From a virus, in the IMG/VR virus record IMGVR_UViG_3300043411_001639, positions 1-64,000 of that record: DNA of 64,000 nucleotides. One strand, written 5' to 3'. Under the pieces are notes generated by a model, which worked only from the letters and a program-made list of their open reading frames with translations, was not told the DNA's origin and did no database searches. Made by a program: the position numbers and the translations under genes. This document shows, piece by piece, positions 11,253 through 55,184 of this stretch (positions are counted from its first letter, which is position 1; every line of letters begins with the position of its first letter).

Positions 11253-11330
11253 GCCCCTATAGTCTAATCTGGATCAGGCACCTGCCTTCTAAGCAGTAAT
11301 ATGCAGGTTCAAATCCTGCTAGGGGTACCA
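11253..11330 (+). tRNA. tRNA-Arg(UCU)
   Basis: GCCCCTA/TAGGGGT acceptor, CT-TCT-AA loop, GCAGG-TTCAAAT-CCTGC T arm, encoded CCA. Confidence 0.93.
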
Positions 11331-11359
11331 CGTCTCTATTCTCTCTATTCTATCTACAA

Positions 11360-11587
11360 ATGAAAAATATTTTTAGTTCATTAAAAAGAACTTTAGTAAA
11401 AGATATCAAACCAGGAGACATAGTCGTAAGTCCCGGTTCTGGGACTAAAGAACTTTTAGTTGTTCTTGTTATAAAGTTATTAGACAACAATAAATCGTGT
11501 GCAATAATAACCTTTCTTAATTCAAAAAACAAAGTTATACAATCTAGTGGTTGGGTCGCGTTACATAAAATAGGAAACAAACAATGA
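11360..11587 (+). CDS. family A small protein
   Basis: IKPGDIVV..LLVVL. Confidence 0.55.
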   Translation: MKNIFSSLKRTLVKDIKPGDIVVSPGSGTKELLVVLVIKLLDNNKSCAIITFLNSKNKVIQSSGWVALHKIGNKQ

Positions 11588-11940
11588 ATAATAAAATTAA
11601 AGTTAGTTTTGCAGGCGCAGTGTTTGAACTAGAAACAGATAGTAGCTTTGTTGAAGTTCAAGGTGTTATGATTAGTTTCAGTCGGTTTAACAACAGTCAA
11701 CCAGTGGTTGTAGAACCAAAAAAATATAAAGTTACGTTTGATCATGGTTATGGTCTTTACAAAGATGGCTACTCAGTTAAGATTGCCAACATTAAAGCGG
11801 TTAGGACTCTAAAAGACTGCGGACTTAAGGAAGCAAAAGAACTAGTTGAAAGTTCCTATCCAGTTGTGTTTGCTACCAAACAACAGGTTGATACCATCAA
11901 AGATATTCCTGGTGTAACATACAACCTGGAACTTCAGTGA
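11584..11940 (+). CDS. protein with ribosomal bL12 (L7/L12) C-terminal domain
   Basis: KIANIKAVRTLKDCGLKEAKELVES matches the bL12 signature K(I/V)xVIKxVRxxTGLGLKEAKxLVE; N-terminus is not bL12-like. Confidence 0.7.
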   Translation: MNNKIKVSFAGAVFELETDSSFVEVQGVMISFSRFNNSQPVVVEPKKYKVTFDHGYGLYKDGYSVKIANIKAVRTLKDCGLKEAKELVESSYPVVFATKQQVDTIKDIPGVTYNLELQ

Positions 11941-12037
11941 TGATATTTGTTCTTTATGCACTGTTAGTGACAGTCTTTCTTGTTAAATTAACATATTACA
12001 TTATTCACTATAGAAAAATTATGAGAAGTGAAAACCA

Positions 12038-12502
12038 ATGAGTTATTGTTATTCAGACACTAGTTTTGATGAACAAGGAAAACCTGTTTCTTCAGCAGAA
12101 TTTCTTGAGTTTAGAAACAAAGAGTTTTCTGTTGAGACATATAAGCAATGGTTGTATCTTAGAGTAACTGAAACTAATGAAGGTGTAAAAAACAAGATCT
12201 TCGTAGAAGAATATCCAGATTATTACAAACATCCTGGCAACTCTTACAGAGAGTTCTATGGGTTCAAGATCTATGCTTATAAATCATCTAACTGTCTAGG
12301 ATTCTGTGCTGTTATCCAAAACCCTGACTTGAGTTGGTGGTTTACTTCTGGATATTATGATGGTGATGATTGCACCGATGAGCAGGATCTTCTTGAAGAA
12401 TTCTTGTACAAGTCCAAATTCTTTGAAGAACAAGTTAACATACCCAATTCAATCAAAACAACATTCAAACAACTAATAAAGGAACACATAGAAAGACCAT
12501 GA
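12038..12502 (+). CDS. hypothetical protein
   Basis: 154 aa ORF. Confidence 0.7.
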   Translation: MSYCYSDTSFDEQGKPVSSAEFLEFRNKEFSVETYKQWLYLRVTETNEGVKNKIFVEEYPDYYKHPGNSYREFYGFKIYAYKSSNCLGFCAVIQNPDLSWWFTSGYYDGDDCTDEQDLLEEFLYKSKFFEEQVNIPNSIKTTFKQLIKEHIERP

Positions 12503-13179
12503 CAGTATATTATCAACAACAACAAGCAAACAGATACCTAACAAAAATTGAACAACTCTTAGATCCTAATGCTGTTTTAGCTGGCGGGGCTCCTAGAGAT
12601 TGGTTCTTTAACCGAAACGCTAAAGATCTAGACATCTTTGTCTATCTTGGTGAACAGAACAAAAAACCTAGTTACTGGAAACAGAAACTAGAAGACGTTG
12701 GGTTTAAGGTTAGTGCCATAAAAAACAAATATGGTCCTAAAGACGGTATGTTTGCTCAGTGTTTTGAGTGGACAAAAAATATATTTGCAAGTTGTAAACT
12801 TACTAAGTCTACTAACCAAGAAGATTACATTCTATCAATGAATCCTTATCTTGAGTGTGTAGTTGATATTGAAGTTGAACCAGGAGAGAATCCTGTTCAG
12901 ATCATGATCATGAATCAACCTGTTGATCAGTGTACTTACACTAAATTTCCAGTATCAATCTCACAGATCTGGTACAAGAATGGAAAGTTTAATAAAACTC
13001 CTGATTTTCTTGTAGGAATCAAACACAACATCATCTATCCAACTGGAATTGATAACAGTATGGATGGTAAGTACACAAAGAAAGTACGTGAGAAGTTTCC
13101 TGAGTTTGAATATCTAGACTCAAAAGATAAAGTTATTCACTTTTTGTCTGATAAACTATCTTCTACTCCTTTTCGCTGA
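12499..13179 (+). CDS. CCA-adding/poly(A) polymerase-like nucleotidyltransferase (head domain)
   Basis: LAGGAPRD...KDLDIFV = class II NTase motif A (GGxxRD...DxD). Confidence 0.75.
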   Translation: MTVYYQQQQANRYLTKIEQLLDPNAVLAGGAPRDWFFNRNAKDLDIFVYLGEQNKKPSYWKQKLEDVGFKVSAIKNKYGPKDGMFAQCFEWTKNIFASCKLTKSTNQEDYILSMNPYLECVVDIEVEPGENPVQIMIMNQPVDQCTYTKFPVSISQIWYKNGKFNKTPDFLVGIKHNIIYPTGIDNSMDGKYTKKVREKFPEFEYLDSKDKVIHFLSDKLSSTPFR

Positions 13180-13186
13180 AAACTGA

Positions 13187-13205
13187 GAGTTAATTCAGTT
13201 AACTC
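13187..13205. promoter_or_regulatory. palindrome with TTCAG core (type A)
   Basis: GAGTTAA-TTCAG-TTAACTC immediately upstream of the ileS promoter -35. Confidence 0.6.
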
Positions 13206-13206
13206 G

Positions 13207-13235
13207 TTGCATCTTCCGTACAGTTCTGGTAGTGT
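13207..13235 (+). promoter_or_regulatory. phage early promoter (ileS)
   Basis: TTGCAT-17-TAGTGT; ATG at 13248. Confidence 0.8.
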
Positions 13236-13247
13236 TGCCAGACTGCC

Positions 13248-16214
13248 ATGAAAACCCTCAATCAAAAACTATTTGTTGAAACAGAACTAAAGTGGCTGAA
13301 GCATTGGGAAAAAACCGATGTATTCAAGAAAACACTAAGGGGCGAGAAAACCTATGTTTTCTATGATGGTCCTCCTTTTGCTACAGGTTTACCTCATTAT
13401 GGACACTTGTTAGCTTCTGTGGTAAAAGATGTTGTACCACGTTACTTTGCAATGAATGGTTTTTTGGTTGAAAGACAGTTTGGTTGGGATTGTCATGGTG
13501 TTCCAGTTGAGAATGAAGTACAGAACCAACTAGGTTTGTTTTCAAATAAACAAGTTGTTGACTATGGAGTTGACAAATTTAATGAAACATGCCGTTCTGT
13601 TGTAAGACGTTATACTCAAGAATGGAAAGAAACTGTCCATAGAGTAGGACGTTGGGTTGATATGGAAAAACCGTATCACACAATGGACTTTGATTTCATG
13701 AATTCAGTCTGGTGGGTTTGGAAAGCTCTCTATGATAAGAACCTAACCTATCAAGACTATAAAGTTGTACCATATTCTGTTGGACTAGGTTCAGGTCTAT
13801 CAAACTTTGAGGCTGGACAGAACTATAAAACAGTTCAAGATCTTAGTTTAACAGTTGAGTTTGAAACAGATAACGGATATACTTTACTAGCTTGGACAAC
13901 GACACCTTGGACACTTCCAATGAATGTTGGCCTTGCTGTAAATCCAGAACTAAACTATGTTGTAGTTGAACAAAACAACAAACAATATGTGGTAGCAGAG
14001 AATCAACTAACAAACCAGTTTGTTGCTGGAACATCAGTCAAACAAACTCTAAAAGGTACTGATTTAGTAGGACTAACCTACAAACCTCTGTTTGGTTTTT
14101 CCTGTAAAAATCCCGAAGTAGTAGCAGGATCATTTGTTACTGATAGTTCTGGTACTGGAGTTGTTCATTTAGCTCCTTGTTATGGAGAAGAAGATTTTAG
14201 TTGTGCCAAAGCTAATGATCTTCCTTTGTTTCATGGTGTAAATGATGAGGGAAAATACTATCCTGGATTTGGTGAATTGTCGGGCAAACTAGCCTTTGAT
14301 TCAAACAACCTAGTAGCAGAACTTCTAGGAGATAAAGTTTATAAACAGCAAGTTTATGAGCATGAGTATCCTTTCTGTTACAGAACAGATACTAGACTTA
14401 TGTACCGCGCTGTAAATAGCTGGTATGTAAAGGTAGAACAGAATAGGGGGCAACTTCTAAAAAACAACAAGTTAACAAACTGGAATCCTGAATCTCTCAG
14501 GGATGGAAGATTTGGAAACTGGCTAGAAAACTGTAGAGATTGGTCTGTTTCACGTAGTAGATTTTGGGGAACTCCTCTGCCTGTATGGTTAAACAAACAA
14601 GGAGAAGAAGTTTGTTTTGGTTCTGCTAAAGAACTAGAGGAAGCTACAGGAGTTGTTTTAACAGATCTTCACAGTCATTTCTTAAAAGACGTTGTGGTTA
14701 AATCTAAACAAGGTGGCGATGATCTTGTTTGGTGTGGTTTTGTGTTTGATTGTTGGTTTGAAAGTGGAGCTATGCCTTATGCTAAGGTTGGTTTCCCTTG
14801 GAAAACCCAAACACTTAACACTCCAGCAGATTTTGTTGCCGAAGGACTTGATCAAACAAGAGGTTGGTTTTATACCCTTAGTGTTCTTAGTACACTGTTG
14901 TTTGACCAACCACCGTTTAAAAACGTAAGTGTTAATGGACTTGTTCTTGCTGAAGATGGCAAGAAGATGTCAAAAAAACTAAAGAACTATCCAGATCCTT
15001 CAGAAGTTCTTGAAGCTTATGGTGCTGATGCTCTAAGACTTTATTTCATGAGCAAACCAGTTGTTTGTGGGACTGAAATGAAGTTTTCTAAGAAAGAAGT
15101 TGAAGAACAAGTTAAGAAAAACGTTCTTAGACTTTATAATGCCTATCACCTGTTTGTTACCTATGCAAATCTACATGATCTTAAACCAACTGGAACAGTT
15201 CAACCAACTAAGTTCTTAAACAAATACTTGGTTGAACTTACTAATAACCTTACCTTTAATCTTTCTCAAGCTGTTGAATCATATCACCTTGAAAAAGTAA
15301 CAGGGTTTGTTACTGAGTATGTAGAGAACCTAGTAAACAACCATGTCAGACTAGCTAAACCGTTACTAAAACAAGGTGATGTTGAAACATTAAACGTAGG
15401 TTATCAGTGTTTACTCCAACTAGCTGTTAGTTTAGCACCTTTTACACCTTTCATGGCAGAAGAGTTTTATCAATCACTTGAAGGTCCACTAGAGAGTGTT
15501 CACCTTGAGAGTTATCCTAAACCTGAAAACCTGTTTAGTGTTTATGAAAAACAAATGGTAAGACTAGTAGAGGTTCTGGAGTTAGGGAGAAACTACAGAG
15601 AAAAACACAAACTTAGTTTAAAACTACCTCTTAAAACAATGGTAGTTTATGAGAACAACCTTGATGTTCTTGATGAGTTAAGAGAACTGGAAGATTGTTT
15701 AAAACAAGAACTAAACTTTGAACAGGTGTTGTTTAGTTCTGATGTTGAGTCTGTGTTTGATTTTAAAGTCAAACCCAACTTTAGCCTTCTTGGAAGAAAA
15801 CTAGGGCCTGAGATGAAATCATTTGTTGTTTATTTGGCAACTCTTGATACTCAAACAACACTCAATCTTGTCAAGACAAGAACAGGATTACAGTTTAAAG
15901 GAGTTGAAGTAACGTTTGATGAACTGGTTGTTGAAAAATTATCAAAACTCCCAGATGTTCTTACAACACCAAAGTATTGTTTAAGGTTTGATCTAACAGT
16001 AGATGAAAAACAACTTGAACAAGAACGGGAAAGAGAACTGTTCAGAGAAGTACAGGAACTACGTAAACAACTAAAACTAACTCCGGGTGATAAAGTAGTT
16101 CTGTGTTCAACAGAAGTTCCATCAGAAAGCCTTAGAAACAAACTAATGACAGAAGCTTTTGTTGTTGGGTTCAACACTGGTTCAGAAACAATGATGTTGC
16201 AACCTGTCCCGTGA
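13248..16214 (+). CDS. ileS: isoleucyl-tRNA synthetase, type II (eukaryote/archaea-like)
   Basis: YDGPPFATGLPHYGH, GWDCHG, WTTTPWTLP (CP1 editing), DWSVSRSRFWGTPLP, EGLDQTRGWF, KMSKK; long type-II C-terminus without the Zn finger. Confidence 0.96.
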   Translation: MKTLNQKLFVETELKWLKHWEKTDVFKKTLRGEKTYVFYDGPPFATGLPHYGHLLASVVKDVVPRYFAMNGFLVERQFGWDCHGVPVENEVQNQLGLFSNKQVVDYGVDKFNETCRSVVRRYTQEWKETVHRVGRWVDMEKPYHTMDFDFMNSVWWVWKALYDKNLTYQDYKVVPYSVGLGSGLSNFEAGQNYKTVQDLSLTVEFETDNGYTLLAWTTTPWTLPMNVGLAVNPELNYVVVEQNNKQYVVAENQLTNQFVAGTSVKQTLKGTDLVGLTYKPLFGFSCKNPEVVAGSFVTDSSGTGVVHLAPCYGEEDFSCAKANDLPLFHGVNDEGKYYPGFGELSGKLAFDSNNLVAELLGDKVYKQQVYEHEYPFCYRTDTRLMYRAVNSWYVKVEQNRGQLLKNNKLTNWNPESLRDGRFGNWLENCRDWSVSRSRFWGTPLPVWLNKQGEEVCFGSAKELEEATGVVLTDLHSHFLKDVVVKSKQGGDDLVWCGFVFDCWFESGAMPYAKVGFPWKTQTLNTPADFVAEGLDQTRGWFYTLSVLSTLLFDQPPFKNVSVNGLVLAEDGKKMSKKLKNYPDPSEVLEAYGADALRLYFMSKPVVCGTEMKFSKKEVEEQVKKNVLRLYNAYHLFVTYANLHDLKPTGTVQPTKFLNKYLVELTNNLTFNLSQAVESYHLEKVTGFVTEYVENLVNNHVRLAKPLLKQGDVETLNVGYQCLLQLAVSLAPFTPFMAEEFYQSLEGPLESVHLESYPKPENLFSVYEKQMVRLVEVLELGRNYREKHKLSLKLPLKTMVVYENNLDVLDELRELEDCLKQELNFEQVLFSSDVESVFDFKVKPNFSLLGRKLGPEMKSFVVYLATLDTQTTLNLVKTRTGLQFKGVEVTFDELVVEKLSKLPDVLTTPKYCLRFDLTVDEKQLEQERERELFREVQELRKQLKLTPGDKVVLCSTEVPSESLRNKLMTEAFVVGFNTGSETMMLQPVP

Positions 16215-16225
16215 CGTGGTAGTGT
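16197..16225 (+). promoter_or_regulatory. phage early promoter
   Basis: TTGCAA-17-TAGTGT overlapping the ileS 3' end. Confidence 0.8.
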
Positions 16226-16266
16226 CAGGTTGTCAGTAGGGCAGAGTAACACGGGAGACACTAAAG

Positions 16267-16464
16267 ATGGCAACAATCAAGTTTTCAGAGGGTGGTTCAC
16301 TCAAGAAGGTAATTGTAACTCTCTGTTGTCCTGAATGTGACAACTCAGAGGAATATTACGTAACCGAACTGATGGATCTTGGTTATCCACGTTGCGTTGA
16401 CTGTGACAAGTTTAAGAATGTTCTAACAGAACTCGTAGCTGTGGAAGGATATGTAGATCCATGA
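16267..16464 (+). CDS. small Zn-ribbon protein
   Basis: CPEC...CVDC; GGGAG RBS. Confidence 0.6.
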   Translation: MATIKFSEGGSLKKVIVTLCCPECDNSEEYYVTELMDLGYPRCVDCDKFKNVLTELVAVEGYVDP

Positions 16465-16783
16465 TTTCAGACGTAGAAAAATGGATTGTTGTTTCAATCT
16501 TTCTAACTCTAGCAATGTTTGCAGTTGTTATTTTCCTGGTGTTCTGACATGAAAAAAAAAACATGTGATGCATGTGGCAAAGAAACCTCAACGTTTGTTA
16601 CAGCAGTAAAACTTGGAGAGGTTAAAGTCTTTTGTCAAGAATGTGTTGTAAACTATCTCCAAGTTTCTGTTGATAGAATTGTAAATCTCATGTGGTGGGC
16701 TAAAAACAACGGTCCAAATCCTGGTTGATTATCTATGTCTCAAGTTGGGCGGCAGTCCTCAAAAAACCTACTTTAAGGGTTTT

Positions 16784-16857
16784 GCGCGAGTCGGATAGGT
16801 TGTCCGGTTTGGCCTTATAAGCCAATAGGCTGAGTTCAATTCTCAGCTCGCGCACCA
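16784..16857 (+). tRNA. tRNA-Ile(UAU), atypical D arm
   Basis: GCGCGAG/CTCGCGC acceptor, TTGGC-CTTATAA-GCCAA anticodon arm, CTGAG-TTCAATT-CTCAG, encoded CCA. Confidence 0.88.
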
Positions 16858-17829
16858 ATAAAATGAAACCTGTAAAACTATTTGGAAATGTTTTTTTGGT
16901 TCAGTCACGCAGTTCTGATGAACTGTTTGATCTGGTTCTATGTAAAGAAAACAGGGAGCTTCCACTGGTTGAAGAAATTCCAGACCCATGTTCATATCAT
17001 GAAACTGATTCTCACGTTCTTGATGACAAATATCTTGATCTTGTTGAACATTGTTTGGATGTTTGTACTTATCAGCAAACAATTGCTCTGCTAGAAGAAA
17101 TAAAATCAGAACAAGTTGATCCAACTAAAATAGCTGCATTTTTAACCAATCAAATGCTTGCGTGGTTTGAATCTTAACAAAAAGGTAAAACAATGATGAT
17201 TCTTTCTGTTGAACAAGGGCAAGCTCTGGTAGATAAATATTTTGGAAAGTATAATGAATTAAGAAAACAGTGTACAGTTTATTACAGTCAAGGTAAACAA
17301 CCTCCTGAATCTCTTGACTTGAAAGAAATGGAACTTTCTTACATGTTGAGACACATCAAAGAACTCCTTGAAGCAGAAGGTTTTGATTGTGTGTTTGATA
17401 TGGAACAGCCATTTGCAAGTTCTAGTGGGATTGTTCGGGTAAAACAATGACACGAAATGATATCAAAGACTGGAAAAGTATTAAAAGATTTTTCTACCCA
17501 GGTTCAAATCAAAGAACTGCTCTGATCATGGGAAGTTTTATTCTAAGCCTCTACCTGATGATGATTCTAACAATGATACTCAACGGTAGGAAACCATTAT
17601 GACAACTGTTCTTGAACAACTAATCAAAGCAGGTGGAAACAGTTATGGAATTCGTACAATTGCTGGGTTTTTGCTAACAATTGAAGATTGCAATGAAATT
17701 GGCAATTATGATAATTCTCCTATCCTCCAGGCAATGGAAGTTATGAAAGTCATTAAGAAGGTTGATCATAAAGCTTCTGATGGAAGAACTAAACTATGGG
17801 AACTTCAACAACTTCTAAAGATGTTTGAC

Positions 17830-17913
17830 GCCAAACTAACTTAACAGAGAAAAGCGGCCCCGTTGAAGGGGTGATAATTCTAGACGTTCCAGGTGCAATT
17901 CCTGGGTTTGGCA
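17830..17913 (+). tRNA. degenerate tRNA (Ser-UGA-like), possible pseudogene
   Basis: GCCAAAC/GTTTGGC acceptor, CCAGG-TGCAATT-CCTGG T arm, 6-nt GTTGAA loop, long variable region. Confidence 0.5.
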
Positions 17914-18172
17914 CTATAAAAGAAAACAACAATGAAAAACAAGTTAAAGTTTGGTTGGAATGTTAGTTGGTTGTTTTTTTTAACGTGGTTGAATCTAAGC
18001 CTTAGAGTGGTGGTTTTACTACTTGTTCCTGTGTTGATCATGTTACCTTTTACGACCAGATATTTACCTGTTCTTTATGTTTGTTATTTGTTTTATACTT
18101 TTGTTTGTAATTTAGCAGCATTTTTGATTGAATGGGGCAGTGTTTTATATCTTTGTAGAATCAAATAATCAT

Positions 18173-18249
18173 TGCAATGGGCTGGTTAAGTCATCAGTAA
18201 TGGACAAGAAACCCTAAACAAACAGGTGCAATTCCTGTCATTGCAACCA
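18173..18249 (+). ncRNA. tRNA-like RNA without a recognisable anticodon arm
   Basis: perfect TGCAATG/CATTGCA acceptor, ACAGG-TGCAATT-CCTGT T arm, ACCA end. Confidence 0.6.
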
Positions 18250-18344
18250 ATGGGTGGAAACAATTGCTGCAACGGAGTAAATAGTGATCTAATATAATAG
18301 TTCATCATCAATGACCCAATAAGACAGACAGGAACAATTCCCAT
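18250..18344 (+). ncRNA. putative structured RNA between tRNA-like elements
   Basis: ATGGG/CCCAT and AATTG/CAATT closing stems with a one-sided bulge; same architecture as 45248..45314. Confidence 0.4.
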
Positions 18345-18349
18345 AACAA

Positions 18350-18379
18350 CCTGCTAAGAGTTAAAAGCCTTAGCAGGTA
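18350..18379. repeat. 10-bp perfect inverted repeat
   Basis: ACCTGCTAAG-N10-CTTAGCAGGT. Confidence 0.8.
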
Positions 18380-18386
18380 TCAGTCT

Positions 18387-18545
18387 GAGAGAAAGTTAAG
18401 CGGTAACTGTTTTCATACACAAGTTTGCAGATGACTACGGTGATGGGTATTTCCAACAACAAGATCAGGGACGGTCTTAAGCTAAACCAGCAATGGTACT
18501 TGTGTCACTGTAAACAACTAGGTTCAAATCCTAGTTCTCTCACCA
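18387..18545 (+). ncRNA. 159-nt tRNA-like RNA with a long helical insert in place of the anticodon arm
   Basis: GAGAGAA/TTCTCTC acceptor + ACCA, CTAGG-TTCAAAT-CCTAG, AGTT/AACT D-like stem, nested GTTTTCA/TGTAAAC, ACACAAGT/ACTTGTGT, TTGC/GCAA helices. Confidence 0.7.
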
Positions 18546-20137
18546 AAGGAATACTATGACTATAACACAGTTTATTACTGGAATAACAATAATTTTATTG
18601 GTATTTATCACTGTTTCTTATATGATAGAGCACTAACCATGTTTATTCCAGATAAAACTCTAAGGTATAGCGGGCTATCCTTAGCCTGTGTATTGCCCGA
18701 AAATATTCAGATGAGTAATCTCCTTGAGAAATATTCGGAGGGTGTTGTAGACGAACCTGGAGATCCTGAAGATGGTTATGGATCAAAGATGATCTGTTTC
18801 CGAAATGACAAAACAGGTCGTTGTTTAACGGTTTATGAGCGGCACGGCCGTCTTCGTATTGGGTGTAATCCCAAATATCTTTATGAAGCAACGGAACTAT
18901 TGGAACAATTAAAACAATTATGAAAACTATTGAAACAATGACGGTTGAAAACTGGAGTGACAACTACATGACTACAAGAGGTGAAATTCTTGCCGATAGT
19001 TTTGTAGGATTGCTTCTTAAACTAGGTGAAGAGGGTTGGTGGTTTAGTTGTTTTAATCCAAAAACAATCGTTGAGACACTTGTATTTCAAAGGGAAACAC
19101 CATGACAATTTCATTTCCAGGTATTGTTGAAACAAAGTATGTTAAGTATGAATCTAAACTAGCTGAACAAGGAACTTATCATTACATCAATGACAATGGT
19201 GTAAAAATCAATTTTGATACCTTTGAGGGAGTTGTTGAACATTTTGGTTCACAAGGTTGGTGGTACAGTGAACCAACTGGATATAATGTTTTTATATTCC
19301 AGCGTTTTGAACCAAAACTAGTTGATGTTCCGGCAACCATCTGAATAATAACAACCATGTATAACACAATCTTTCTAAGAGTTGGTTCTGCTAAACATCA
19401 AGCTAATGCTATTCTTCCTTATTGTAGTTTTAGTCGGAGTAACTTTTGAAGGTATTGTAGAAGTAGTAAAGATTTTTATAAAAGGATAATAAAAACAATG
19501 ATTAAAGATGTATTTAAAATTCTCGGTGTGGCTGTACTATTCCTTCTGTTTGTAGCCTTGTTTTTAGCTGTGTTCTTTGGAATACCTGCACTAGTTCAAT
19601 GGTGTATTAACAGTATTGCTCAGAACGCTCATTCAGACTTTAGAATGGATTATTGGCTAACTTTTGGTTGCTGGATTGTACTAGGTTTAATTGGTGGAAT
19701 GTTCCGCAATTCTAACAAATCAAGTTCAACATGACATATAAAACTCTTAAATTTATACGATTAACTATGTTTTTTGTTTTTGTAGGATTTATTCCAGGTA
19801 TTTTTTGTTGGTTTGTATTTGATTTACCACTGTTAAAAACCATGGTGCTTGGATTGTTTGTTTTAAATATGGTTTTATTAAAAACCTTTATTCTTTCATA
19901 TGTTGAAGATTATTGGTATAATAACAAAAAATGATCATTGTAATATATCTTTGTTTAGTGCTAGGTGTCTTGTTTATTATAGCAGTTTTAGCAATGTTGT
20001 TAGGTATTTTAGTTGATATCTGGATTCATAAATGACAACTACAATTATATATTTTATCTGTGTGTTTATAACTTGGTGTGTTATTGATATTCTATAAATC
20101 AGTTGCAACCATCTTCCAACTCTGCTAGAGTTCCCAT

Positions 20138-20959
20138 ATGCCAAAAAAATCTGAAATGGTTGAAGGCTATCTAAAACCAAAAAAAATCTTTCTTGAGGGG
20201 TATAAATCTCAAGTTGAATCTGGGTGTAGACTTCTTGATATTCCTACTCAATGTTTTTATGAAAGGGATATTCCAAGGCTGGTTAAGTCAGGCGAAATGA
20301 CACCCTTTACTCCAGTTAAAGGAACTGTAAAAACTGTTAGAACCTACTTTCACCACGTAGGAATCAAACAACCTAAGAACGTTGATATTCCTGAAGAACT
20401 CCGTACCATGAAGTTTTGTGGACGTAAGTTCTATGACGGAATGACTCTTGGTAAAATCAGGAGAATGCCAGAGAAGGAACGTTCTAAGCTATTCATCAAA
20501 GCAAGAGATATTCAAAAAGCTTGGAGTGGATCAAATGCTGCTGATGATCTTTTACAAAACACAGGACTGTTTCCTGATAGCACTCCTGTGTTTTGTTGTG
20601 ACTACAAAGAGAATCTTAACGAAAACTATTATTGTCATGTTAGAGAAGGAAAAATTATAGACAATGTTGATCAGAAAATTGAAAAATTTATTGAACAAGC
20701 AATTAAAACTTGGACAAAGAATGTTCATTCAGCATATCGTATTGATATCGGCGAAATAAACGATAAACTAGTAATCACAGAACTAAATGAAGTTTGGTCA
20801 AGTGGAAGATCTGTTTTCTCTAAAATAGAACAGAACTGGGATCACTTTGATTATTATAATCCAAAAAGACAAGAACTAGAAAAAAACTGGCGTAACAAAA
20901 CAAACACCGAAGCTGTTCTTCTGCTTTTGGCACGTTGGAAAGATTTTAAGCTAGTATGA
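20138..20959 (+). CDS. ATP-grasp domain protein (R2K/DUF4343-like)
   Basis: G(T/S)V..V, LFIK...K.WSG, AYRIDIG....LVITELNE..SSG ATP-grasp motifs. Confidence 0.65.
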   Translation: MPKKSEMVEGYLKPKKIFLEGYKSQVESGCRLLDIPTQCFYERDIPRLVKSGEMTPFTPVKGTVKTVRTYFHHVGIKQPKNVDIPEELRTMKFCGRKFYDGMTLGKIRRMPEKERSKLFIKARDIQKAWSGSNAADDLLQNTGLFPDSTPVFCCDYKENLNENYYCHVREGKIIDNVDQKIEKFIEQAIKTWTKNVHSAYRIDIGEINDKLVITELNEVWSSGRSVFSKIEQNWDHFDYYNPKRQELEKNWRNKTNTEAVLLLLARWKDFKLV

Positions 20960-21432
20960 GTGAACTGTTACAACACACTGTCTGTTACACAAAACATTCT
21001 TTTTCTAATTTTGAACCCAAAGATCCTGTTCTTGAGATGATTTATAAACTGTGTCCATTGTTTGGATTAACATTTGAACAAACAGATGGAACAGGAATTT
21101 GTTCTGTTATAGGATATCACAACAGCACAGCTTTAGCCTGCCCAATTATCCAGATTAAGACAAACCAGATATGTTTTACATTTGGGTATAACTTTGATCA
21201 TTGGACTGTATCTTATCAAGGTCCAAAGTTTAATCCAGAACCCATGAGTTGTTTAACCTACAATGGTTTGGAGCATACAGGACATCCTGATATCAGTTAT
21301 ATAATGCCAAAAGAGTTAGTGTTTAAGAATATCAGTAAAACTAACACTTCTAAGTTTACTGTTGAGATAGGTAATAAATTCAACTTATACATGTTCGTCT
21401 GGTTGTTAACAAAACAACTGAAATTACACTAA
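20956..21432 (+). CDS. hypothetical protein
   Basis: 158 aa ORF, ATGA overlap. Confidence 0.65.
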   Translation: MSELLQHTVCYTKHSFSNFEPKDPVLEMIYKLCPLFGLTFEQTDGTGICSVIGYHNSTALACPIIQIKTNQICFTFGYNFDHWTVSYQGPKFNPEPMSCLTYNGLEHTGHPDISYIMPKELVFKNISKTNTSKFTVEIGNKFNLYMFVWLLTKQLKLH

Positions 21433-21437
21433 ATCAG

Positions 21438-21466
21438 TTGCATCTACCTCTGGAACCTGCTAAGGT
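21438..21466 (+). promoter_or_regulatory. phage early promoter (leaderless, mnmA)
   Basis: TTGCAT-17-TAAGGT; ATG 6 nt later. Confidence 0.85.
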
Positions 21467-21472
21467 TCATCT

Positions 21473-22552
21473 ATGTCTACCAACAAGAAGATTCTCGTGG
21501 GAATGTCTGGTGGTGTGGATTCTGCTGTTGTTGCGGCTATTCTTGCAAAACAGGGGAATGAAGTCATCGCCTATACTCTGAAACTTCTTGAATCTTTTTC
21601 TGTTGATGAAGAAGGTGAAGAGGATAACACCAAGGGATGTTGTTCTTTTGAAGACATCAAAGATGCTACTCGTGTCTGTGACAAGATTGGTGGAATCAAC
21701 CACGTTGTTCAGAACTGGAAGAACCAGTTTTATCAGACTGTTATCAAGCCTTATATTGATGGTGCTCGTGAAGGTGTAACTACCAATCCTTGCATCACCT
21801 GTAATTCTTCTATTAAAATCCCTGTTTTGATGGCTGTTGCTGCAAAACTTGGATGTTCAAAAGTAGCAACAGGGCATTATGCCCGTGTTTCCAGTGATGG
21901 AAAACATATCATGCGTGCTGCTAATCTCAAAAAAGATCAATCTTATTTTCTCTGGGATCTTACTCCCGATATCATCTCACGTCTTGAGTTTCCTCTTGGT
22001 GAAGTTTCAGACAAAGAAGATACTCGGGAAATGGCTCGTGAGTTTAATCTTCATATTTCTGAGAAGAAAGATTCAACCAATCTCTGTTTTCTAAAGGGAG
22101 GAACAAAGGAAGAGTTCCTTTCTAAGAATGGCGTAGTATCTGAACCTGGGAACTTCGTTGACACCAACGGAACTATTCTAGGAAAGCACCAGGGATATAC
22201 AAAATATGTTCCTGGGCAACGTACAGGTTTGAACTCTAGCAACGGTGCAAGGTTTGTTCTTAACGTAGTTGCAGATACTAATACTGTTGTAGTAGGCGAC
22301 AAGTCTACTGATGGAATTTCAACCGTAACTATTAACAAAGCTAAGTGGGTTGATGGAACTAAGCCTTCACTTGATGCTCTTGAAGGTGTTTGCAGGTATC
22401 ATTCTGCACCTGTTGGAATCAAGTCTATCACTGAAAACTCTGATAACACTTGGACAGTTGAGTTTAATACTCCTGTGTTTGGTATCACCAAAGGTCAACA
22501 TCTTGTGTTTTATCAGAATGACTGCGTGATGGGTGGTGGAGTGTTTGTTTAA
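21473..22552 (+). CDS. mnmA: tRNA U34 2-thiouridylase
   Basis: PP-loop SGGVDS, NPCITCN, ATGHYAR, KDQSYFL, FPLG, KKDSTNLCF, GQR.GL, GQ..VFY...GGG. Confidence 0.95.
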   Translation: MSTNKKILVGMSGGVDSAVVAAILAKQGNEVIAYTLKLLESFSVDEEGEEDNTKGCCSFEDIKDATRVCDKIGGINHVVQNWKNQFYQTVIKPYIDGAREGVTTNPCITCNSSIKIPVLMAVAAKLGCSKVATGHYARVSSDGKHIMRAANLKKDQSYFLWDLTPDIISRLEFPLGEVSDKEDTREMAREFNLHISEKKDSTNLCFLKGGTKEEFLSKNGVVSEPGNFVDTNGTILGKHQGYTKYVPGQRTGLNSSNGARFVLNVVADTNTVVVGDKSTDGISTVTINKAKWVDGTKPSLDALEGVCRYHSAPVGIKSITENSDNTWTVEFNTPVFGITKGQHLVFYQNDCVMGGGVFV

Positions 22553-44726: not shown

Positions 44727-44798
44727 GCAGGGAACCCTCTGGTTGGGGGAGCGACTCTTATAAAGTCGTCATGGTGGGTTCAATTCCCACTCCCTGTA
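44727..44798 (+). tRNA. tRNA-Ile(UAU), atypical D arm
   Basis: GCAGGGA/TCCCTGT, CGACT-CTTATAA-AGTCG, GTGGG-TTCAATT-CCCAC; no encoded CCA. Confidence 0.85.
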
Positions 44799-44805
44799 CT
44801 AATAA

Positions 44806-44842
44806 ACCCTAAGTCGGTGGTTCAAATCCACCCTGGCGGACT
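44806..44842 (+). pseudogene. 3'-half tRNA remnant
   Basis: isolated T arm GGTGG-TTCAAAT-CCACC with no 5' half. Confidence 0.5.
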
Positions 44843-44858
44843 AAACAAAAGAATAGAG

Positions 44859-51929: not shown

Positions 51930-52012
51930 CAAACCTTACCAGCGCCTCTACACTGCCCGCGGATATTCAAACCAACCATTTCCATCAACTGAATATAAAT
52001 CCAGCAAACCAG

Positions 52013-52041
52013 TTGCAACCACTGCCCGAACCTGCTAGAGT
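52013..52041 (+). promoter_or_regulatory. phage early promoter
   Basis: TTGCAA-17-TAGAGT; spacer identical to that of 48773. Confidence 0.85.
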
Positions 52042-52070
52042 AGGATCATCAAACGGGAAAGGAACTGACG

Positions 52071-52322
52071 ATGAGTGTCCTGAGAATCAAAGGTGTCAAG
52101 TTCGTAAACCGTCAACACCTGAAAGATCAGAAACAGATCCTCCTTCCCAATGAATACTATGAGAAACTGATCGGTGTTATCAACACACCAACCAAAGTAA
52201 CTCTGGCTTTCAAGTGTGGAAGACGCTGGAAGATGTACAGAGGATTCATCTACTCACAGACAGAAAGTAACTTCCGTTCAGAGTCTCAAACTCGCTGGTC
52301 TTGGCTCACTGTTGAAAAGTAA
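52071..52322 (+). CDS. hypothetical basic protein
   Basis: ATG after promoter and AAGGA RBS. Confidence 0.65.
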   Translation: MSVLRIKGVKFVNRQHLKDQKQILLPNEYYEKLIGVINTPTKVTLAFKCGRRWKMYRGFIYSQTESNFRSESQTRWSWLTVEK

Positions 52323-52549
52323 CATCAACTGACTCTCTCATAAAAGAAAAACAAAACAATGCATAACAAACTTGACCCCCGTGATCCCCGTTTCATTGAG
52401 TTTTACCTTTCTGGAGGAGATGTTCCGAAAGAGGTAAACGACAAAAACCCCAGTACTTCTCTTAGTTCAGAGGAGTCTGAGGTGCTTCTTAACCAGGGTT
52501 TCTATAAGCCTGTTGCTACAAAAGAAGGCGTTGGATTCAAGAACAACTG

Positions 52550-52729
52550 ATTGACACTCATAGTCTGAACAGTTAGGTGAACCCTTCAACAACCCAACGG
52601 AGCGTTTTCCTAACTGTTCAGGCAATGAACTACTGTCCGCGCTTCATTCATAGAGCGCCCGTCGTTGATTGCCTGAAACCCTCTCAAACCGGAATAACCT
52701 GGAATCTTTGGAAAACCCTAGAGGCAAAA
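52550..52729 (-). ncRNA. putative antisense-oriented structured RNA
   Basis: downstream of the only minus-strand promoter; hairpins CTGAACAGTTAGG/CCTAACTGTTCAG (52565-52621) and TTCAGGCAAT/ATTGCCTGAA (52617-52677). Confidence 0.55.
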
Positions 52730-52735
52730 CAGTTG

Positions 52736-52764
52736 ACACTAGCAGCTCTCACAGAGGGTTGCAA
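52736..52764 (-). promoter_or_regulatory. phage early promoter, minus strand
   Basis: reverse complement reads TTGCAA-CCCTCTGTGAGAGCTGC-TAGTGT. Confidence 0.85.
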
Positions 52765-52780
52765 CAGAGAAGTTTCATCT

Positions 52781-52796
52781 AGCAACCTCCGTGCCA
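52781..52796 (-). promoter_or_regulatory. sigma54 (RpoN) -24/-12 box
   Basis: minus strand TGGCACGGAGGTTGCT, perfect TGGCACG-N4-TTGC. Confidence 0.75.
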
Positions 52797-52802
52797 AAAC
52801 TG

Positions 52803-52821
52803 AGATTAGCTGAACTAATCT
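52803..52821. promoter_or_regulatory. palindrome with CTGAA core (type A) at the divergence centre
   Basis: AGATTAG-CTGAA-CTAATCT. Confidence 0.7.
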
Positions 52822-52826
52822 AGCTG

Positions 52827-52855
52827 TTGCAACCTCTCTTGGAACCTGCTAGTGT
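52827..52855 (+). promoter_or_regulatory. phage early promoter
   Basis: TTGCAA-17-TAGTGT. Confidence 0.85.
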
Positions 52856-52906
52856 CGGGTTGTCAGGTGAGGGATAGCAGGGCAGAACGAACGAAGGAAA
52901 AAAACC

Positions 52907-53050
52907 ATGATGGAACTCTCGCTCAACTTCTCCGTTTCTCTGGAAACCATCACGGGCTTCACGCCGGTTTTCGTGAGCATCATGGCCGCGTGTTTCGTCA
53001 TGGGAGCGTCTCTCCGGTTCCTGGTGTGCAAGGTCCGCGCCAACTTCTAG
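52907..53050 (+). CDS. small membrane peptide (47 aa)
   Basis: MMELSLNFSVSLETITGFTPVFVSIMAACFVMGASLRFLVCKVRANF; own promoter, AAGGA RBS; not in ORF track. Confidence 0.6.
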   Translation: MMELSLNFSVSLETITGFTPVFVSIMAACFVMGASLRFLVCKVRANF

Positions 53051-53070
53051 AAGTTAGCTGAACTAACTTC
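53050..53070. promoter_or_regulatory. palindrome with CTGAA core (type A)
   Basis: GAAGTTAG-CTGAA-CTAACTTC. Confidence 0.7.
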
Positions 53071-53075
53071 GGGTG

Positions 53076-53104
53076 TTGCAACCTCTGAGAGAACCTGCTA
53101 GGGT
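53076..53104 (+). promoter_or_regulatory. phage early promoter (leaderless)
   Basis: TTGCAA-17-TAGGGT; ATG 53111. Confidence 0.85.
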
Positions 53105-53110
53105 AAGAGC

Positions 53111-53221
53111 ATGAAAAAGGCGAACAAGGGCAAGCGGTGGAACAAGCGGGAAAAACGCCGCAACGAATCGCTGGACGGTCGCAAGCAACGGCGCAAGTTT
53201 CTCGCGAGTCTCACTGACTGA
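53111..53221 (+). CDS. 36-aa highly basic peptide
   Basis: MKKANKGKRWNKRENARNESLDGRKQRRKFLASLTD; leaderless start; not in ORF track. Confidence 0.6.
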   Translation: MKKANKGKRWNKREKRRNESLDGRKQRRKFLASLTD

Positions 53222-53222
53222 C

Positions 53223-53238
53223 TGGCATAGAGGTTGCA
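53223..53238 (+). promoter_or_regulatory. sigma54 -24/-12 box
   Basis: TGGCATAGAGGTTGCA. Confidence 0.7.
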
Positions 53239-53253
53239 ACGGAAAACCAACTG

Positions 53254-53282
53254 TTGCAACCTCCCCGAAAGGGTGCTAAGGT
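53254..53282 (+). promoter_or_regulatory. phage early promoter (tRNA pair)
   Basis: TTGCAA-17-TAAGGT. Confidence 0.85.
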
Positions 53283-53309
53283 AGAAGAGTAGGTAACAGA
53301 AGGAAGAAA

Positions 53310-53392
53310 GCTCTAGTGGCGGAATGGTAGACGCGGGGGTTTCAAAAACCTCTTCCCGCAAGGGAGTGAGAGTTCAAGTCTCTCTTGGAGCA
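53310..53392 (+). tRNA. tRNA-Leu(CAA)
   Basis: GCTCTAG/TTGGAGC, GGGGT-TTCAAAA-ACCTC, TCCC-GCAA-GGGA variable arm, GAGAG-TTCAAGT-CTCTC. Confidence 0.92.
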
Positions 53393-53435
53393 CAAAAGCC
53401 ACAAACGGCGCGGCAGTGTCGTTGGCTTGTCTCTT

Positions 53436-53508
53436 GCAACGGTAGCTCAACTGGCAGAGCATTCGGCTTTTAACCGAAGGGTTGAGGGTTCAAGTCCCTC
53501 CCGTCGCA
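53436..53508 (+). tRNA. tRNA-Lys(UUU)
   Basis: GCAACGG/CCGTCGC (one mismatch), GCTC/GAGC D stem, TTCGG-CTTTTAA-CCGAA, GAGGG-TTCAAGT-CCCTC. Confidence 0.9.
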
Positions 53509-53515
53509 CCGTGGT

Positions 53516-53531
53516 CGGCACCAGTCTTGCA
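53516..53531 (+). promoter_or_regulatory. sigma54 -24/-12 box
   Basis: CGGCACCAGTCTTGCA (GG-N10-GC spacing kept). Confidence 0.6.
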
Positions 53532-53546
53532 AACAAAAAAAGGCTG

Positions 53547-53575
53547 TTGCAACCAACCCCGCAACCTGCTAGTCT
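53547..53575 (+). promoter_or_regulatory. phage early promoter
   Basis: TTGCAA-17-TAGTCT. Confidence 0.8.
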
Positions 53576-53610
53576 AAGAATGTAGCAGGAAACAACCAAC
53601 GGAGTCAAGA

Positions 53611-54003
53611 ATGGCAAAGCGCACGACGGAAGAAACCATCGCTCACACCGTCAAGGTCAAGGGTATCGTCGCCGACCGCTCCGGCATCAACAACACGCGT
53701 GGCGCGCGTGCGATCATCGCGTCGGAAGTCTTCGGCGTCTCGCAGACACTCCGCAACCACGGCGCCGCCGCCGTCTTCGCGCTCCGCAACGGGGATAACG
53801 TCGTGGTGCTGTCCCGCGTCGCCCGCAAGGGCCGCCCGCGCTGGAGGCAAGTCGGGCACGGATCTTCCACGGTCATCACGTTCGCCCGCGTGCTCTCCGG
53901 TGGCAAGGTTTCCAAGGTCGTCAAGGCGTCCACGCTTGCGGAGCTCTGCAACAAGGGTGCCCGCTACATCGGGACGCGCGCCAACCTCTACGGCAACGGC
54001 TAG
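53611..54003 (+). CDS. GC-rich basic hypothetical protein
   Basis: GGAG RBS, G/C-ending codons in this frame, own promoter. Confidence 0.8.
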   Translation: MAKRTTEETIAHTVKVKGIVADRSGINNTRGARAIIASEVFGVSQTLRNHGAAAVFALRNGDNVVVLSRVARKGRPRWRQVGHGSSTVITFARVLSGGKVSKVVKASTLAELCNKGARYIGTRANLYGNG

Positions 54004-54010
54004 AACCCGC

Positions 54011-54026
54011 TGGCACGAAGGTTGCA
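54011..54026 (+). promoter_or_regulatory. sigma54 -24/-12 box
   Basis: TGGCACGAAGGTTGCA, perfect consensus. Confidence 0.75.
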
Positions 54027-54051
54027 AGGGCAAGGCAAAGAAAACCCGCTG

Positions 54052-54080
54052 TTGCAACCTGTTTCGGAACCTGCTAGAGT
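54052..54080 (+). promoter_or_regulatory. tandem early promoter 1 of 3
   Basis: TTGCAA-17-TAGAGT. Confidence 0.85.
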
Positions 54081-54136
54081 CTGAATGTAAGGTGAGAGGT
54101 AGGGAAGACAGAGAACCGGAAGGAAAAAGAATCCGG

Positions 54137-54165
54137 TTGCAACCCTCCCCGAAACCTGCTAGAGT
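54137..54165 (+). promoter_or_regulatory. tandem early promoter 2 of 3
   Basis: TTGCAA-17-TAGAGT. Confidence 0.85.
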
Positions 54166-54214
54166 CAGAGAGTGAGAAAAGGAACGGGGCCAGAAACTAG
54201 ACGAAACAATCTGG

Positions 54215-54243
54215 TTGCAACCCTCCGAAGAGTCTGGTAAGGT
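54215..54243 (+). promoter_or_regulatory. tandem early promoter 3 of 3
   Basis: TTGCAA-17-TAAGGT. Confidence 0.85.
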
Positions 54244-54314
54244 AAGAGTCAGAAAGGGAGTCAGGGTGGCAATGTCGCCTAGCCCACTCCCAAACCAGGA
54301 AAGAAAAAAGAATA

Positions 54315-55034
54315 ATGAACTCCATCAACGCCACCTCGCCCGTCGTTTCCTCGGATTCCATCGTCGCCGACCCCAACGCCTCGCAGGAGAACACCATGCA
54401 CACCCCCGACAACTCCGCCGACGCTTCGCCCCTGTCCATGCGCCCCGCGGATCGCGCCGCCCGCGGCGAGTCCCTCACGCCCGACGAGGAGGGCGCGCTC
54501 GCGGCCAGCGACGCGGCGGAGTTCCTCGCCTACCTCCGCGCACAGCGCGCGTACCTCGCCTCCGCGCTCGCGGCGGCGAAGGCCCCCAAGGTTCCGGGGA
54601 AGCGCGGGCCGCAGGGTCCCCAGCGCGGGAAGGTGGTCACGCTGGCCGACGGCCGGATGATGATCGTCGGCGCGGGTCTCGGCAAGCGGGCCGCGTTCAA
54701 TTCCGCGAAGGGTGCGCTCGGGGCGCGCGCGGAGCTCCTCCCCGGCGACGCGCTGAACATCGCCCTCGTGACGTTCGGGGCGGACGGGAGCGGCGTCCTC
54801 TACACCGTCAACGGTGTCGCGGGCGAGACGCCCCGCGGGAAGGGTTCGCCCGGTGTGTCGCTCTCTTGCACGCGGGCGGACAACGGCGAAGAGGTCGTGT
54901 TGTTTCCGACGATGGATTCCATCGTGGACGCGGTGTGCATCACGGGTTCCGCGGCGCTCCTCGCGGTGCTTCCGGTGCTTCAAGCGCAGAAGGTGCGCGC
55001 CGCGCGCGCAGCGAAGACGCCCGCCACGGTCTGA
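54315..55034 (+). CDS. very GC-rich Ala-rich hypothetical protein
   Basis: third codon positions almost all G/C in this frame; behind three promoters; possible internal start at MHTPD (AGGAG RBS). Confidence 0.8.
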   Translation: MNSINATSPVVSSDSIVADPNASQENTMHTPDNSADASPLSMRPADRAARGESLTPDEEGALAASDAAEFLAYLRAQRAYLASALAAAKAPKVPGKRGPQGPQRGKVVTLADGRMMIVGAGLGKRAAFNSAKGALGARAELLPGDALNIALVTFGADGSGVLYTVNGVAGETPRGKGSPGVSLSCTRADNGEEVVLFPTMDSIVDAVCITGSAALLAVLPVLQAQKVRAARAAKTPATV

Positions 55035-55062
55035 CGCCTCACCCGCCAGAATCCCACCTAAA

Positions 55063-55119: not shown

Positions 55120-55184
55120 ACAACTTTGACCCCCTCTAGCCCCTGTACCCCCCCACCTCTACCTACCCGGACCCAGGAGGTGGT

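Follow-up and report, generated by a model that had tools for sequence, protein, structure and literature searches.

Gene content of the locus

We analysed a window of 64,000 nucleotides, which is the first 64 kb of the 156,732-bp IMG/VR virus record IMGVR_UViG_3300043411_001639. At positions 11,253 to 22,552 of this window, a gene for isoleucyl-tRNA synthetase (IleRS, encoded by ileS) is followed by a tRNA-Ile gene with the anticodon UAU, and both lie among other genes related to translation. The G+C content (GC) is 35%, and the completeness of the record is estimated at 43%. Outside the window, the contig has genes for a portal protein, a tail sheath, a baseplate wedge protein, a primase and an SbcC-like protein. 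The presence of these structural and replication genes indicates that the virus is a large myovirus. Its portal protein is 36–40% identical to portals of Microcystis phages, Flavobacterium phages and an uncultured 484-kb phage. Among cultured phages, no near-identical or related DNA was found for the region, and none for either of its two tRNA-Ile(UAU) genes. The initial annotation, made from the sequence alone, had described an AT-rich phage with a complete type II ileS, a tRNA-Ile(UAU) 570 bp downstream, a second tRNA-Ile(UAU) at 44727 and mnmA at 21473. All of these were confirmed (Table 1), and the first tRNA starts exactly 570 bp after the ileS stop codon. It had further proposed that these genes, together with a class II nucleotidyltransferase (NTase) encoded upstream of ileS, form a self-contained module that reads AUA codons. 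This part of the proposal fared less uniformly, as described below.

An IleRS without isoleucine

The phage IleRS consists of the Pfam domains tRNA-synt_1 (the catalytic core), Anticodon_1 and DUF5915 (PF19302, E 3.8e-15). DUF5915 is a C-terminal domain of the eukaryotic kind and replaces the bacterial zinc-binding domain in this protein. The sequence contains the motifs HYGH and KMSKK as well as the editing motif TTTPWTLP. The closest solved structures are those of eukaryotic cytoplasmic IleRS (723 bits), followed by bacterial IleRS2, and type 1 enzymes score about 270 bits, i.e., about 450 bits lower. Therefore, the phage IleRS is a type-2 enzyme. In the clade formed by this protein and its closest relatives, the motifs WTTTPWTLP and GTGVVHLAP of the CP1 editing domain are invariant, and more than 300 alignment columns are invariant among 11 members. 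The retention of the motifs and of these columns indicates that the IleRS is under purifying selection as an enzyme.

None of the 988 residues of the phage IleRS is isoleucine, and the gene contains no ATA, ATT or ATC codon. From the genome mean of 6.4% Ile, about 63 would be expected (P ~3e-29). The next lowest open reading frame (ORF) of at least 100 amino acids on the contig has 0.9% Ile, and the flanking NTase gene has 15 Ile codons. The closest relatives, which are 50–58% identical or near-identical copies and are 823–1034 residues long, contain 0, 0, 5, 1, 0, 2, 0, 0, 2, 0 and 1 Ile, and the genes neighbouring IleRS on their contigs contain 7–11% Ile. P0014 and P0016 have 39 and 53 Ile, and 108 more distant homologues, which are mostly cellular and bacterial where named, have 3.1–7.1% Ile (median 5.4%). 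On a control bacterial contig, IleRS has 53 Ile and LeuRS has 64 Leu. At the 33 alignment columns that are Ile in at least 70% of 40 distant homologues, the phage enzyme has Val (18), Leu (5), Met (2) or other residues. The few Ile left in clade members sit at differing columns. In a tree, all eight Ile-poor IleRS fell on one side of a single split, and when 1.84 billion proteins clustered at 50% identity were searched, only two of the top 150 cluster representatives were Ile-poor. Since the IleRS lacks Ile, the enzyme can be made without charged tRNA-Ile. The simplest reading of this composition is that translation of ileS has to be possible while charged tRNA-Ile is missing. A literature search gave nothing relevant on phage synthetases that lack their cognate amino acid.

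Further synthetases without, or almost without, their own amino acid were observed on two contigs that carry IleRS relatives (L287:4331-7547 and L286:20635-21633). A MetRS-like protein of 463 amino acids has the initiator as its sole Met, a class I synthetase fragment of 496 amino acids has no Val, and a TrpRS/TyrRS-like protein of 332 amino acids has no Trp. The lysyl-tRNA synthetase (LysRS) encoded on L005, the contig of a 58% identical IleRS, was also considered as a lysine-free enzyme; this was rejected because it has 28 Lys, and it is thus an exception to the cognate-free pattern. The IleRS of L287 is split into ORFs of 837 and 180 amino acids. Another relative, P0007 (53% identical, a single Ile), is encoded on an 859-kb JGI contig, where most of the surrounding genes are ORFans and Collar, He_PIG and ART-PolyVal domains also occur. 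This contig could belong to an unusually large phage or to a giant element of another kind.

The tRNA-Ile(UAU) genes

ARAGORN called eight tRNA genes on the contig, all inside the window: three for Arg(UCU), two for Ile(UAU) and one each for Leu(UAA), Leu(CAA) and Lys(UUU). The initial annotation had counted six tRNAs without CCA, which is correct if the Lys tRNA ending in CC is included. Both tRNA-Ile(UAU) have A73, A37 and A38. We call the copy behind ileS type A and the copy at 44727 type B. Type B is atypical and scores below the Rfam threshold. A diverged copy of type B was found on contig L014, which encodes a 99% identical IleRS (L014:3632-3707); compensatory substitutions in its acceptor, D and anticodon stems preserve the fold. 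These paired changes indicate that type B is a real, although atypical, tRNA despite the Rfam miss. When viral contigs were scanned for the exact pattern of type B, no match was obtained.

On L014, the tRNA-Ile(UAU) behind ileS is of type B instead of type A. At L014:3590-3760, the type B tRNA and a leader of about 40 nt have taken the place of the first ~44 nt of type A, or two thirds of this gene from its 5' side, and a remnant of 27 nt is left of its 3' part. In the window, a 3' half of a tRNA directly follows type B. The turnover of tRNA cassettes at L014 and at 44727-44845 suggests targeted replacement of tRNA genes. Thus, the remnants at both sites show that tRNA genes turn over there, yet the anticodon behind ileS stayed UAU.

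Reading of the wobble base and codon demand

In the structure of the yeast IleRS-tRNA complex, a carbonyl that is common to G34, I34, U34 and pseudouridine-34 is recognised by R999 together with Q996 and the L1004 backbone, and C34 is rejected (PMC11685878). The phage residues Q936, R939 and L944 align to yeast Q996, R999 and L1004, respectively, and R939 and Q936 are invariant in the 11 clade members. For the type 1 IleRS of Escherichia coli, a UAU variant of tRNA-Ile2 is a 360-fold poorer substrate than the form with lysidine (PMC3575796). Bacteria that have tRNA-Ile(UAU) and lack tRNA-Ile lysidine synthetase (TilS) have either a change in the Trp that contacts the wobble base (Mycoplasma mobile) or a eukaryote-type IleRS (Bifidobacterium and Neorickettsia) (PMC3575796). 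Type 2 IleRS occurs in about half of bacteria (PMC13752280). Judging from R939 and the published yeast and E. coli kinetics, it is mechanistically plausible that the phage IleRS and tRNA-Ile(UAU) act as a pair. This pair had been described as semi-orthogonal, which is too strong: the same wobble-reading residue accepts G34, and the phage IleRS should therefore charge host tRNA-Ile(GAU) as well. The other part of that claim, namely that the pair reads AUA without TilS, is consistent with the type 2 enzyme, the conserved R939, the AUA usage and lack of TilS on the contig described next, and the UAU anticodon kept in L014.

Codon usage was counted in ORFs of at least 100 amino acids. AUA accounts for 36% of Ile codons and for 23 of every 1000 codons overall, and AGA makes up 69% of Arg codons, AAA 78% of Lys codons and UUA 27% of Leu codons, and this usage matches the phage tRNA set. 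The shares differ along the contig. Between 16 and 56 kb, AUA accounts for 10–23% of Ile codons, compared with 34–45% in the rest of the contig (26% in a short end bin). The AGA share of Arg codons is 20–49% in the block and 60–88% outside it, and the UUA share of Leu codons is 7–20% and 22–36%, respectively. This 40-kb block (window 16001-56000) has small ORFs, most of the tRNA genes and a higher GC at third codon positions (0.28–0.43), and the flanking and structural regions are heavy in AUA, AGA and UUA. The two codon classes imply that one class of genes is readable where tRNAs for these codons are scarce and that the rest is not. The initial annotation had proposed a GC-rich host, for which only the block speaks, and indirectly: it would fit a host that disfavours AUA, AGA and UUA. 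The block could instead be recently acquired DNA, or it could reflect early versus late gene timing. Neither TilS nor tRNA-Ile(CAU) was found on the 157-kb contig, which represents about 43% of the genome.

The locus in relatives

Besides L014, three related loci allowed gene order to be compared. L013 (IleRS 98% and NTase 83% identical) has the order tRNA-Arg(UCU), L12-like ORF, ORF of 154 amino acids, NTase and IleRS, and the contig stops at the ileS stop codon. In L005, IleRS is followed by a small ORF, an R2K ATP-grasp gene, an ORF of 227 amino acids and LysRS. In L007 (IleRS 52% identical, 2 Ile), a tRNA(CAU) lies 4 kb after ileS and is directly followed by a gene for a TilS N-domain protein (TIGR02432, 126.7 bits versus a threshold of 93.6) and then by IF3. 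L286 and L287 encode an Ile-poor IleRS and have no nearby tRNA. The IleRS relatives in IMG/VR are mostly from metagenome-assembled genomes of giant viruses, with 31–45% identity, and scans of metagenomes and GTDB gave, among the matches listed, IleRS relatives at 46% identity or less. A search for TilS in four other viral records with IleRS, which are fragments 11–36% complete, was negative.

The region L007:16855-17678 was inspected further. The tRNA(CAU) is 84 nt long and has a long variable arm and U73, and its identity is unclear; the protein encoded downstream has 227 amino acids and consists of the TilS N-domain only. It is possible that the two form a phage-borne lysidine route. The TilS gene was also examined for avoidance of AUA, which was not significant (p 0.13).

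NTase, MnmA and other neighbouring genes

The gene directly upstream of ileS encodes an NTase of 226 amino acids, for which no Pfam or NCBIfam match exceeded the threshold; PF01743 covers positions 3–25 only, with 12.9 bits against 23. An AlphaFold2 model built from 14 homologues (mean predicted local distance difference test score 81.5) is structurally similar to class II tRNA nucleotidyltransferases and to the poly(A) polymerase of E. coli over about 155 residues (Z 12.2 for 3aql and 11.2 for 1miv). The match is limited to the first ~180–220 residues of templates that are 344–517 residues long, that is, to the head and neck. Motif A (AGGAPRDW...DLD) is invariant in 14 family members, and besides it only Q6, A10, A41 and Q134 are invariant or near-invariant. 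Thus, the phage NTase resembles class II CCA-adding enzymes, poly(A) polymerase I (1miv, 3aql) and the stand-alone head-domain protein 2la3 in motif A and in the fold of its head and neck. It differs from class II CCA-adding enzymes in lacking motif B (RRD) and motif D (EDxxR), which select CTP/ATP, and the body and tail, which hold the tRNA. A search of the contig for the head domain of CCA enzymes gave no match above threshold. Members of the NTase family are present in 120 cultured phages (Vibrio, Escherichia, Klebsiella, Campylobacter and others), a tRNA lies within 5 kb at only 12 of its 76 IMG/VR loci, and the two tRNAs nearest the phage NTase already encode CCA. The class II fold that had been annotated is therefore borne out, but a role of this protein in adding CCA is doubtful. 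The small NTase is a common phage enzyme and may have no part in the AUA route.

MnmA, the tRNA 2-thiouridine synthase, is intact. Alignment to 2der and 9hln showed the PP-loop motif SGGVDS and the two catalytic cysteines in NPCITCN and NLCF. The known substrates of MnmA, the Lys, Glu and Gln tRNAs, all have U34-U35, and UAU has A35. Of the two substrates suggested in the initial annotation, tRNA-Lys(UUU) is thus the likely one in the phage, but the UAU tRNAs are not expected to be recognised. The most likely targets of MnmA are U34 of tRNA-Lys(UUU) and U34 of the Glu and Gln tRNAs of the host. None of the 21 Ile codons of mnmA is AUA, and its usage is shifted to AAG and CAG. Avoidance of AAA, CAA and AUA specific to mnmA was considered and rejected because the bias is common to the whole 16–56 kb block. 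Annotated mnmA is rare in cultured phages; examples are Microcystis phage MaAM05 and Escherichia phage vB_EcoM-689R6.

Table 1. Positions of the genes and tRNAs discussed in the text, numbered from the first nucleotide of the window
Feature	Position	Strand	Evidence and remarks
tRNA-Arg(UCU)	11253..11330	+	ARAGORN; Rfam tRNA 58 bits; 3' end ACCA encoded; 5' edge of translation island; kept upstream in L013
118-aa protein, partial match to ribosomal L7/L12 C-terminal domain	11584..11940	+	PF00542 E 1.7e-7, residues 64-95 only; TIGR00855 22.5 bits, far under cut-off
154-aa protein, function unassigned	12038..12502	+	No Pfam, PHROG or NCBIfam match; overlaps start of NTase gene; same place in L013
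Truncated class-II-type nucleotidyltransferase, head and neck, 226 aa	12499..13179	+	PHROG 10174/1614 'nucleotidyltransferase'
ileS, type-2 (eukaryote-like) isoleucyl-tRNA synthetase, 988 aa	13248..16214	+	TIGR00392 763.6 bits, cut-off 621.4
tRNA-Ile(UAU) type A	16784..16857	+	ARAGORN; Rfam tRNA 44.1 bits, threshold 29; A73, C4-G69, A37, A38; CCA encoded
R2K-clade ATP-grasp protein	20138..20959	+	PF18299 E 1.1e-7
MnmA, tRNA 2-thiouridine(34) synthase, CxxC (Bacillus subtilis-like) type	21473..22552	+	NF001138 329 bits, cut-off 284; three Pfam domains
tRNA-Ile(UAU) type B	44727..44799	+	ARAGORN; under Rfam tRNA threshold; atypical D arm, G1-U72, no CCA
tRNA remnant, 3' half (T arm and 3' acceptor strand)	44800..44845	+	Read from sequence; directly after type B; L014 likewise leaves a type A remnant
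tRNA-Lys(UUU)	53436..53510	+	ARAGORN; Rfam 68.2 bits; 3' end CC

Several other features lie near ileS. The L7/L12-like ORF, in which about 30 of the 118 residues are matched, is kept upstream of the NTase gene in L013, and L7/L12-like genes are reported in huge phages. A gene for an R2K ATP-grasp protein (RimK-like amidoligase) is found near ileS both in this phage and in L005 (L005:3716-4492; R2K_3/R2K_2, two genes after IleRS), and it is possible that this protein is a peptide-tagging enzyme acting on a translation component. Between ileS and the type A tRNA are two small ORFs with a CxxC...CxxC zinc ribbon (16267-16464 and 16552-16728, + strand). They were considered as conserved partners of ileS, which was rejected because they are kept only in the near-identical phage L014. 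A tRNA-like element of 159 nt lies between ileS and mnmA (18387-18545, + strand). In this element, a perfect acceptor stem of 7 bp with ACCA is combined with a canonical T arm, a D-like hairpin and, in place of the anticodon arm, a long multi-helix insert (minimum free energy -44 kcal/mol, z -2.8). It was called neither by ARAGORN, with introns allowed and also in tmRNA mode, nor by Rfam. At 52000-56000, 4 kb with a GC of ~0.52 (genome 0.35) and overlapping ORFs on both strands adjoin tRNA-Leu(CAA) and tRNA-Lys(UUU).

Function of the locus

We consider it rather probable that the locus is a phage isoleucine-supply kit within a wider translation island, in which an Ile-free, U34-compatible type-2 IleRS and tRNA-Ile(UAU) serve AUA-rich genes. 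The IleRS would be made even when charged tRNA-Ile is scarce or absent. It would charge the phage tRNA-Ile(UAU), with U34 probably recognised via R939 as judged from the yeast structure, and it would also charge host tRNA-Ile(GAU). Translation would then be opened for most of the genome, where AUA makes up 34–45% of Ile codons, and the 16–56 kb block, which avoids AUA, AGA and UUA, would be readable with the host tRNA pool. Such an AUA route would have no need for lysidine synthetase. NTase and MnmA are neighbours in the translation island and may have no part in this route.

Several points weigh against an isoleucine-supply kit built on the UAU tRNA. The adjacency of ileS and tRNA-Ile(UAU) is shown only for the close lineage. 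L005 has no tRNA in its 7 kb, with none within 3.8 kb after ileS, and the more distant viral IleRS loci have no tRNA-Ile(UAU) within 10 kb. Since L007 carries a TilS N-domain protein and tRNA(CAU) near its Ile-poor IleRS, freedom from Ile does not depend on the UAU route. This suggests that the trait is older than, and independent of, the choice of UAU, and that two sub-lineages place different AUA solutions near an Ile-poor IleRS. We infer both the charging of the UAU tRNAs by the phage IleRS and their poor charging by the host enzyme, and a host with type 2 IleRS might charge these tRNAs itself. TilS, tRNA(CAU) or more synthetases could lie in the remaining genome, as the contig covers about 43% of it. 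The 68-nt gap before ileS has a promoter-like sequence (TTGCAT-17-TAGTGT), but no small ORF, terminator, leader peptide or attenuator that would sense a shortage of charged tRNA was found in it. Furthermore, ileS uses AGA, UUA and AAA freely; it is guarded against Ile shortage only, and not against a general lack of phage tRNAs.

A more far-reaching version of the isoleucine-supply kit can be put forward tentatively. A deep clade of large-phage IleRS would have purged Ile completely in order to rebuild charging after a collapse, and in this lineage the enzyme would be coupled to UAU tRNAs that only a U34-accepting enzyme charges well, resulting in a self-starting and TilS-independent system. 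If this is true, infection passes through a state with almost no charged tRNA-Ile, brought about by phage shut-off or by host defence.

Among the alternatives, the one that survives best, although we regard it as somewhat unlikely, is a general hardening of Ile charging with no link to U34. According to this explanation, the Ile-free IleRS keeps up the supply in an AT-rich, Ile-demanding phage, the UAU tRNAs are ordinary and charged by the host, and their placement reflects an insertion hot spot for tRNAs. The Ile-poor IleRS of L007 with its TilS and tRNA(CAU), and those of L005, L286 and L287 without a nearby tRNA, are consistent with it, as is the cassette turnover that left old remnants at the tRNA site. 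The other phage tRNAs (Arg(UCU) x3, Leu(UAA) and Lys(UUU)) fit plain supply according to codon usage, and IleRS2 is present in nearly half of bacteria (PMC13752280). However, the UAU anticodon survived the replacement of the tRNA gene at this site, and type-1 IleRS works poorly with UAU (PMC3575796). Moreover, T4-like phages normally carry CAU and rely on host TilS (PMC1524935), so that UAU is unusual, and here it is paired with a U34-compatible enzyme.

It is improbable that the locus replaces charging that has been destroyed, with host IleRS or tRNA-Ile inactivated by an abortive-infection toxin or by phage shut-off and the Ile-free IleRS and the phage tRNA restarting decoding for phage genes only. 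The total purge of Ile over a deep divergence implies that even one Ile codon is costly, which fits near-zero charged tRNA-Ile better than mild scarcity. The phage tRNA sequences are unlike any in cultured phages, and redirection of host translation has been proposed for huge phages (PMC7162821). On the contig, however, no candidate nuclease or IleRS inhibitor was identified, most other phage ORFs, including those near ileS, are normal in Ile, and a UAU tRNA alone would, unless it superwobbles, leave AUU and AUC unread, which together make up 64% of the Ile codons of the phage.

The four-part AUA module of the initial annotation, with NTase completing the CCA ends of the phage tRNAs and MnmA thiolating the UAU tRNAs at U34 against misreading of AUG, is very unlikely. 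In its favour, the NTase folds like the head and neck of class II enzymes, its gene immediately precedes ileS here and in L013, a complete CCA is missing from six tRNAs, and MnmA is intact. However, the NTase family keeps motif A only, without body and tail, is present in 120 cultured phages with a tRNA within 5 kb at 12 of 76 loci, and is nearest here to two tRNAs that encode CCA already, the known MnmA substrates have U35 where UAU has A35, and mnmA lies 5 kb away in the other codon-usage block.

Relation to known systems

Overall, the locus is a variant of huge-phage translation gene sets and probably of TilS-independent AUA decoding, and the clade of Ile-free synthetases is its surprising element. 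Like the TilS-independent bacteria Mycoplasma mobile, Bifidobacterium and Neorickettsia, the phage has tRNA-Ile(UAU), which would take the place of the lysidine route, together with an IleRS that would accept U34, and the IleRS of Bifidobacterium and Neorickettsia is of the eukaryote type, as is the phage enzyme (Taniguchi et al. 2013, PMC3575796). Unlike in these bacteria, the pair is virus-borne, lies within 570 bp and is added to the set of the host, and the IleRS is Ile-free. The phage also resembles those whose translation gene sets were described by Al-Shayeb et al. (2020, PMC7162821), since it, too, is a large uncultured myovirus that encodes tRNAs and a tRNA synthetase as well as a tRNA-modification enzyme and a protein similar to L7/L12. 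In the passages of that paper considered here, charging of the phage's own tRNA variants by phage synthetases is already proposed, but neither a pairing of IleRS with tRNA-Ile(UAU) nor a synthetase without its cognate amino acid is described. T4-type phages likewise are AT-rich and supply an AUA reader themselves, along with tRNAs for Arg(UCU) and Leu(UAA) (Nolan et al. 2006, PMC1524935). Their AUA reader is tRNA-Ile(CAU), which depends on host TilS and host IleRS, whereas this phage has UAU and its own synthetase. Yeast cytoplasmic IleRS (Chen et al. 2024, PMC11685878; PDB 8wnd) has the same domain layout and is, with human IleRS, the best solved relative of the phage enzyme. About 1 in 16 residues is Ile in the homologues and none in the phage IleRS, the C terminus of which is slightly shorter.

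The absence of Ile also has a parallel in metabolism. Alves and Savageau reportedly described in 2005 that amino-acid biosynthetic enzymes are depleted in their own amino acid and can thus be made in shortage. By analogy, the Ile-free IleRS can be regarded as an extreme form of this cognate bias. It differs in that the protein is a synthetase and in that the depletion is total and is kept across a deep viral clade.

Significance

The purpose of phage synthetases and tRNAs is still argued, and this locus gives two concrete testable points. The rare lysidine-free reading of AUA, by a U34-compatible IleRS and an unmodified-type tRNA-Ile(UAU), would here be packaged on a virus. An Ile-free IleRS may also be useful in cell-free systems and in genetic-code engineering, for example for freeing the AUA codon. 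The conservation of an Ile-free synthetase of 988 residues over about 50% divergence is evidence, at the level of sequence, that the enzyme may be needed when its own product is missing, and it bears on the state of host translation during infection.

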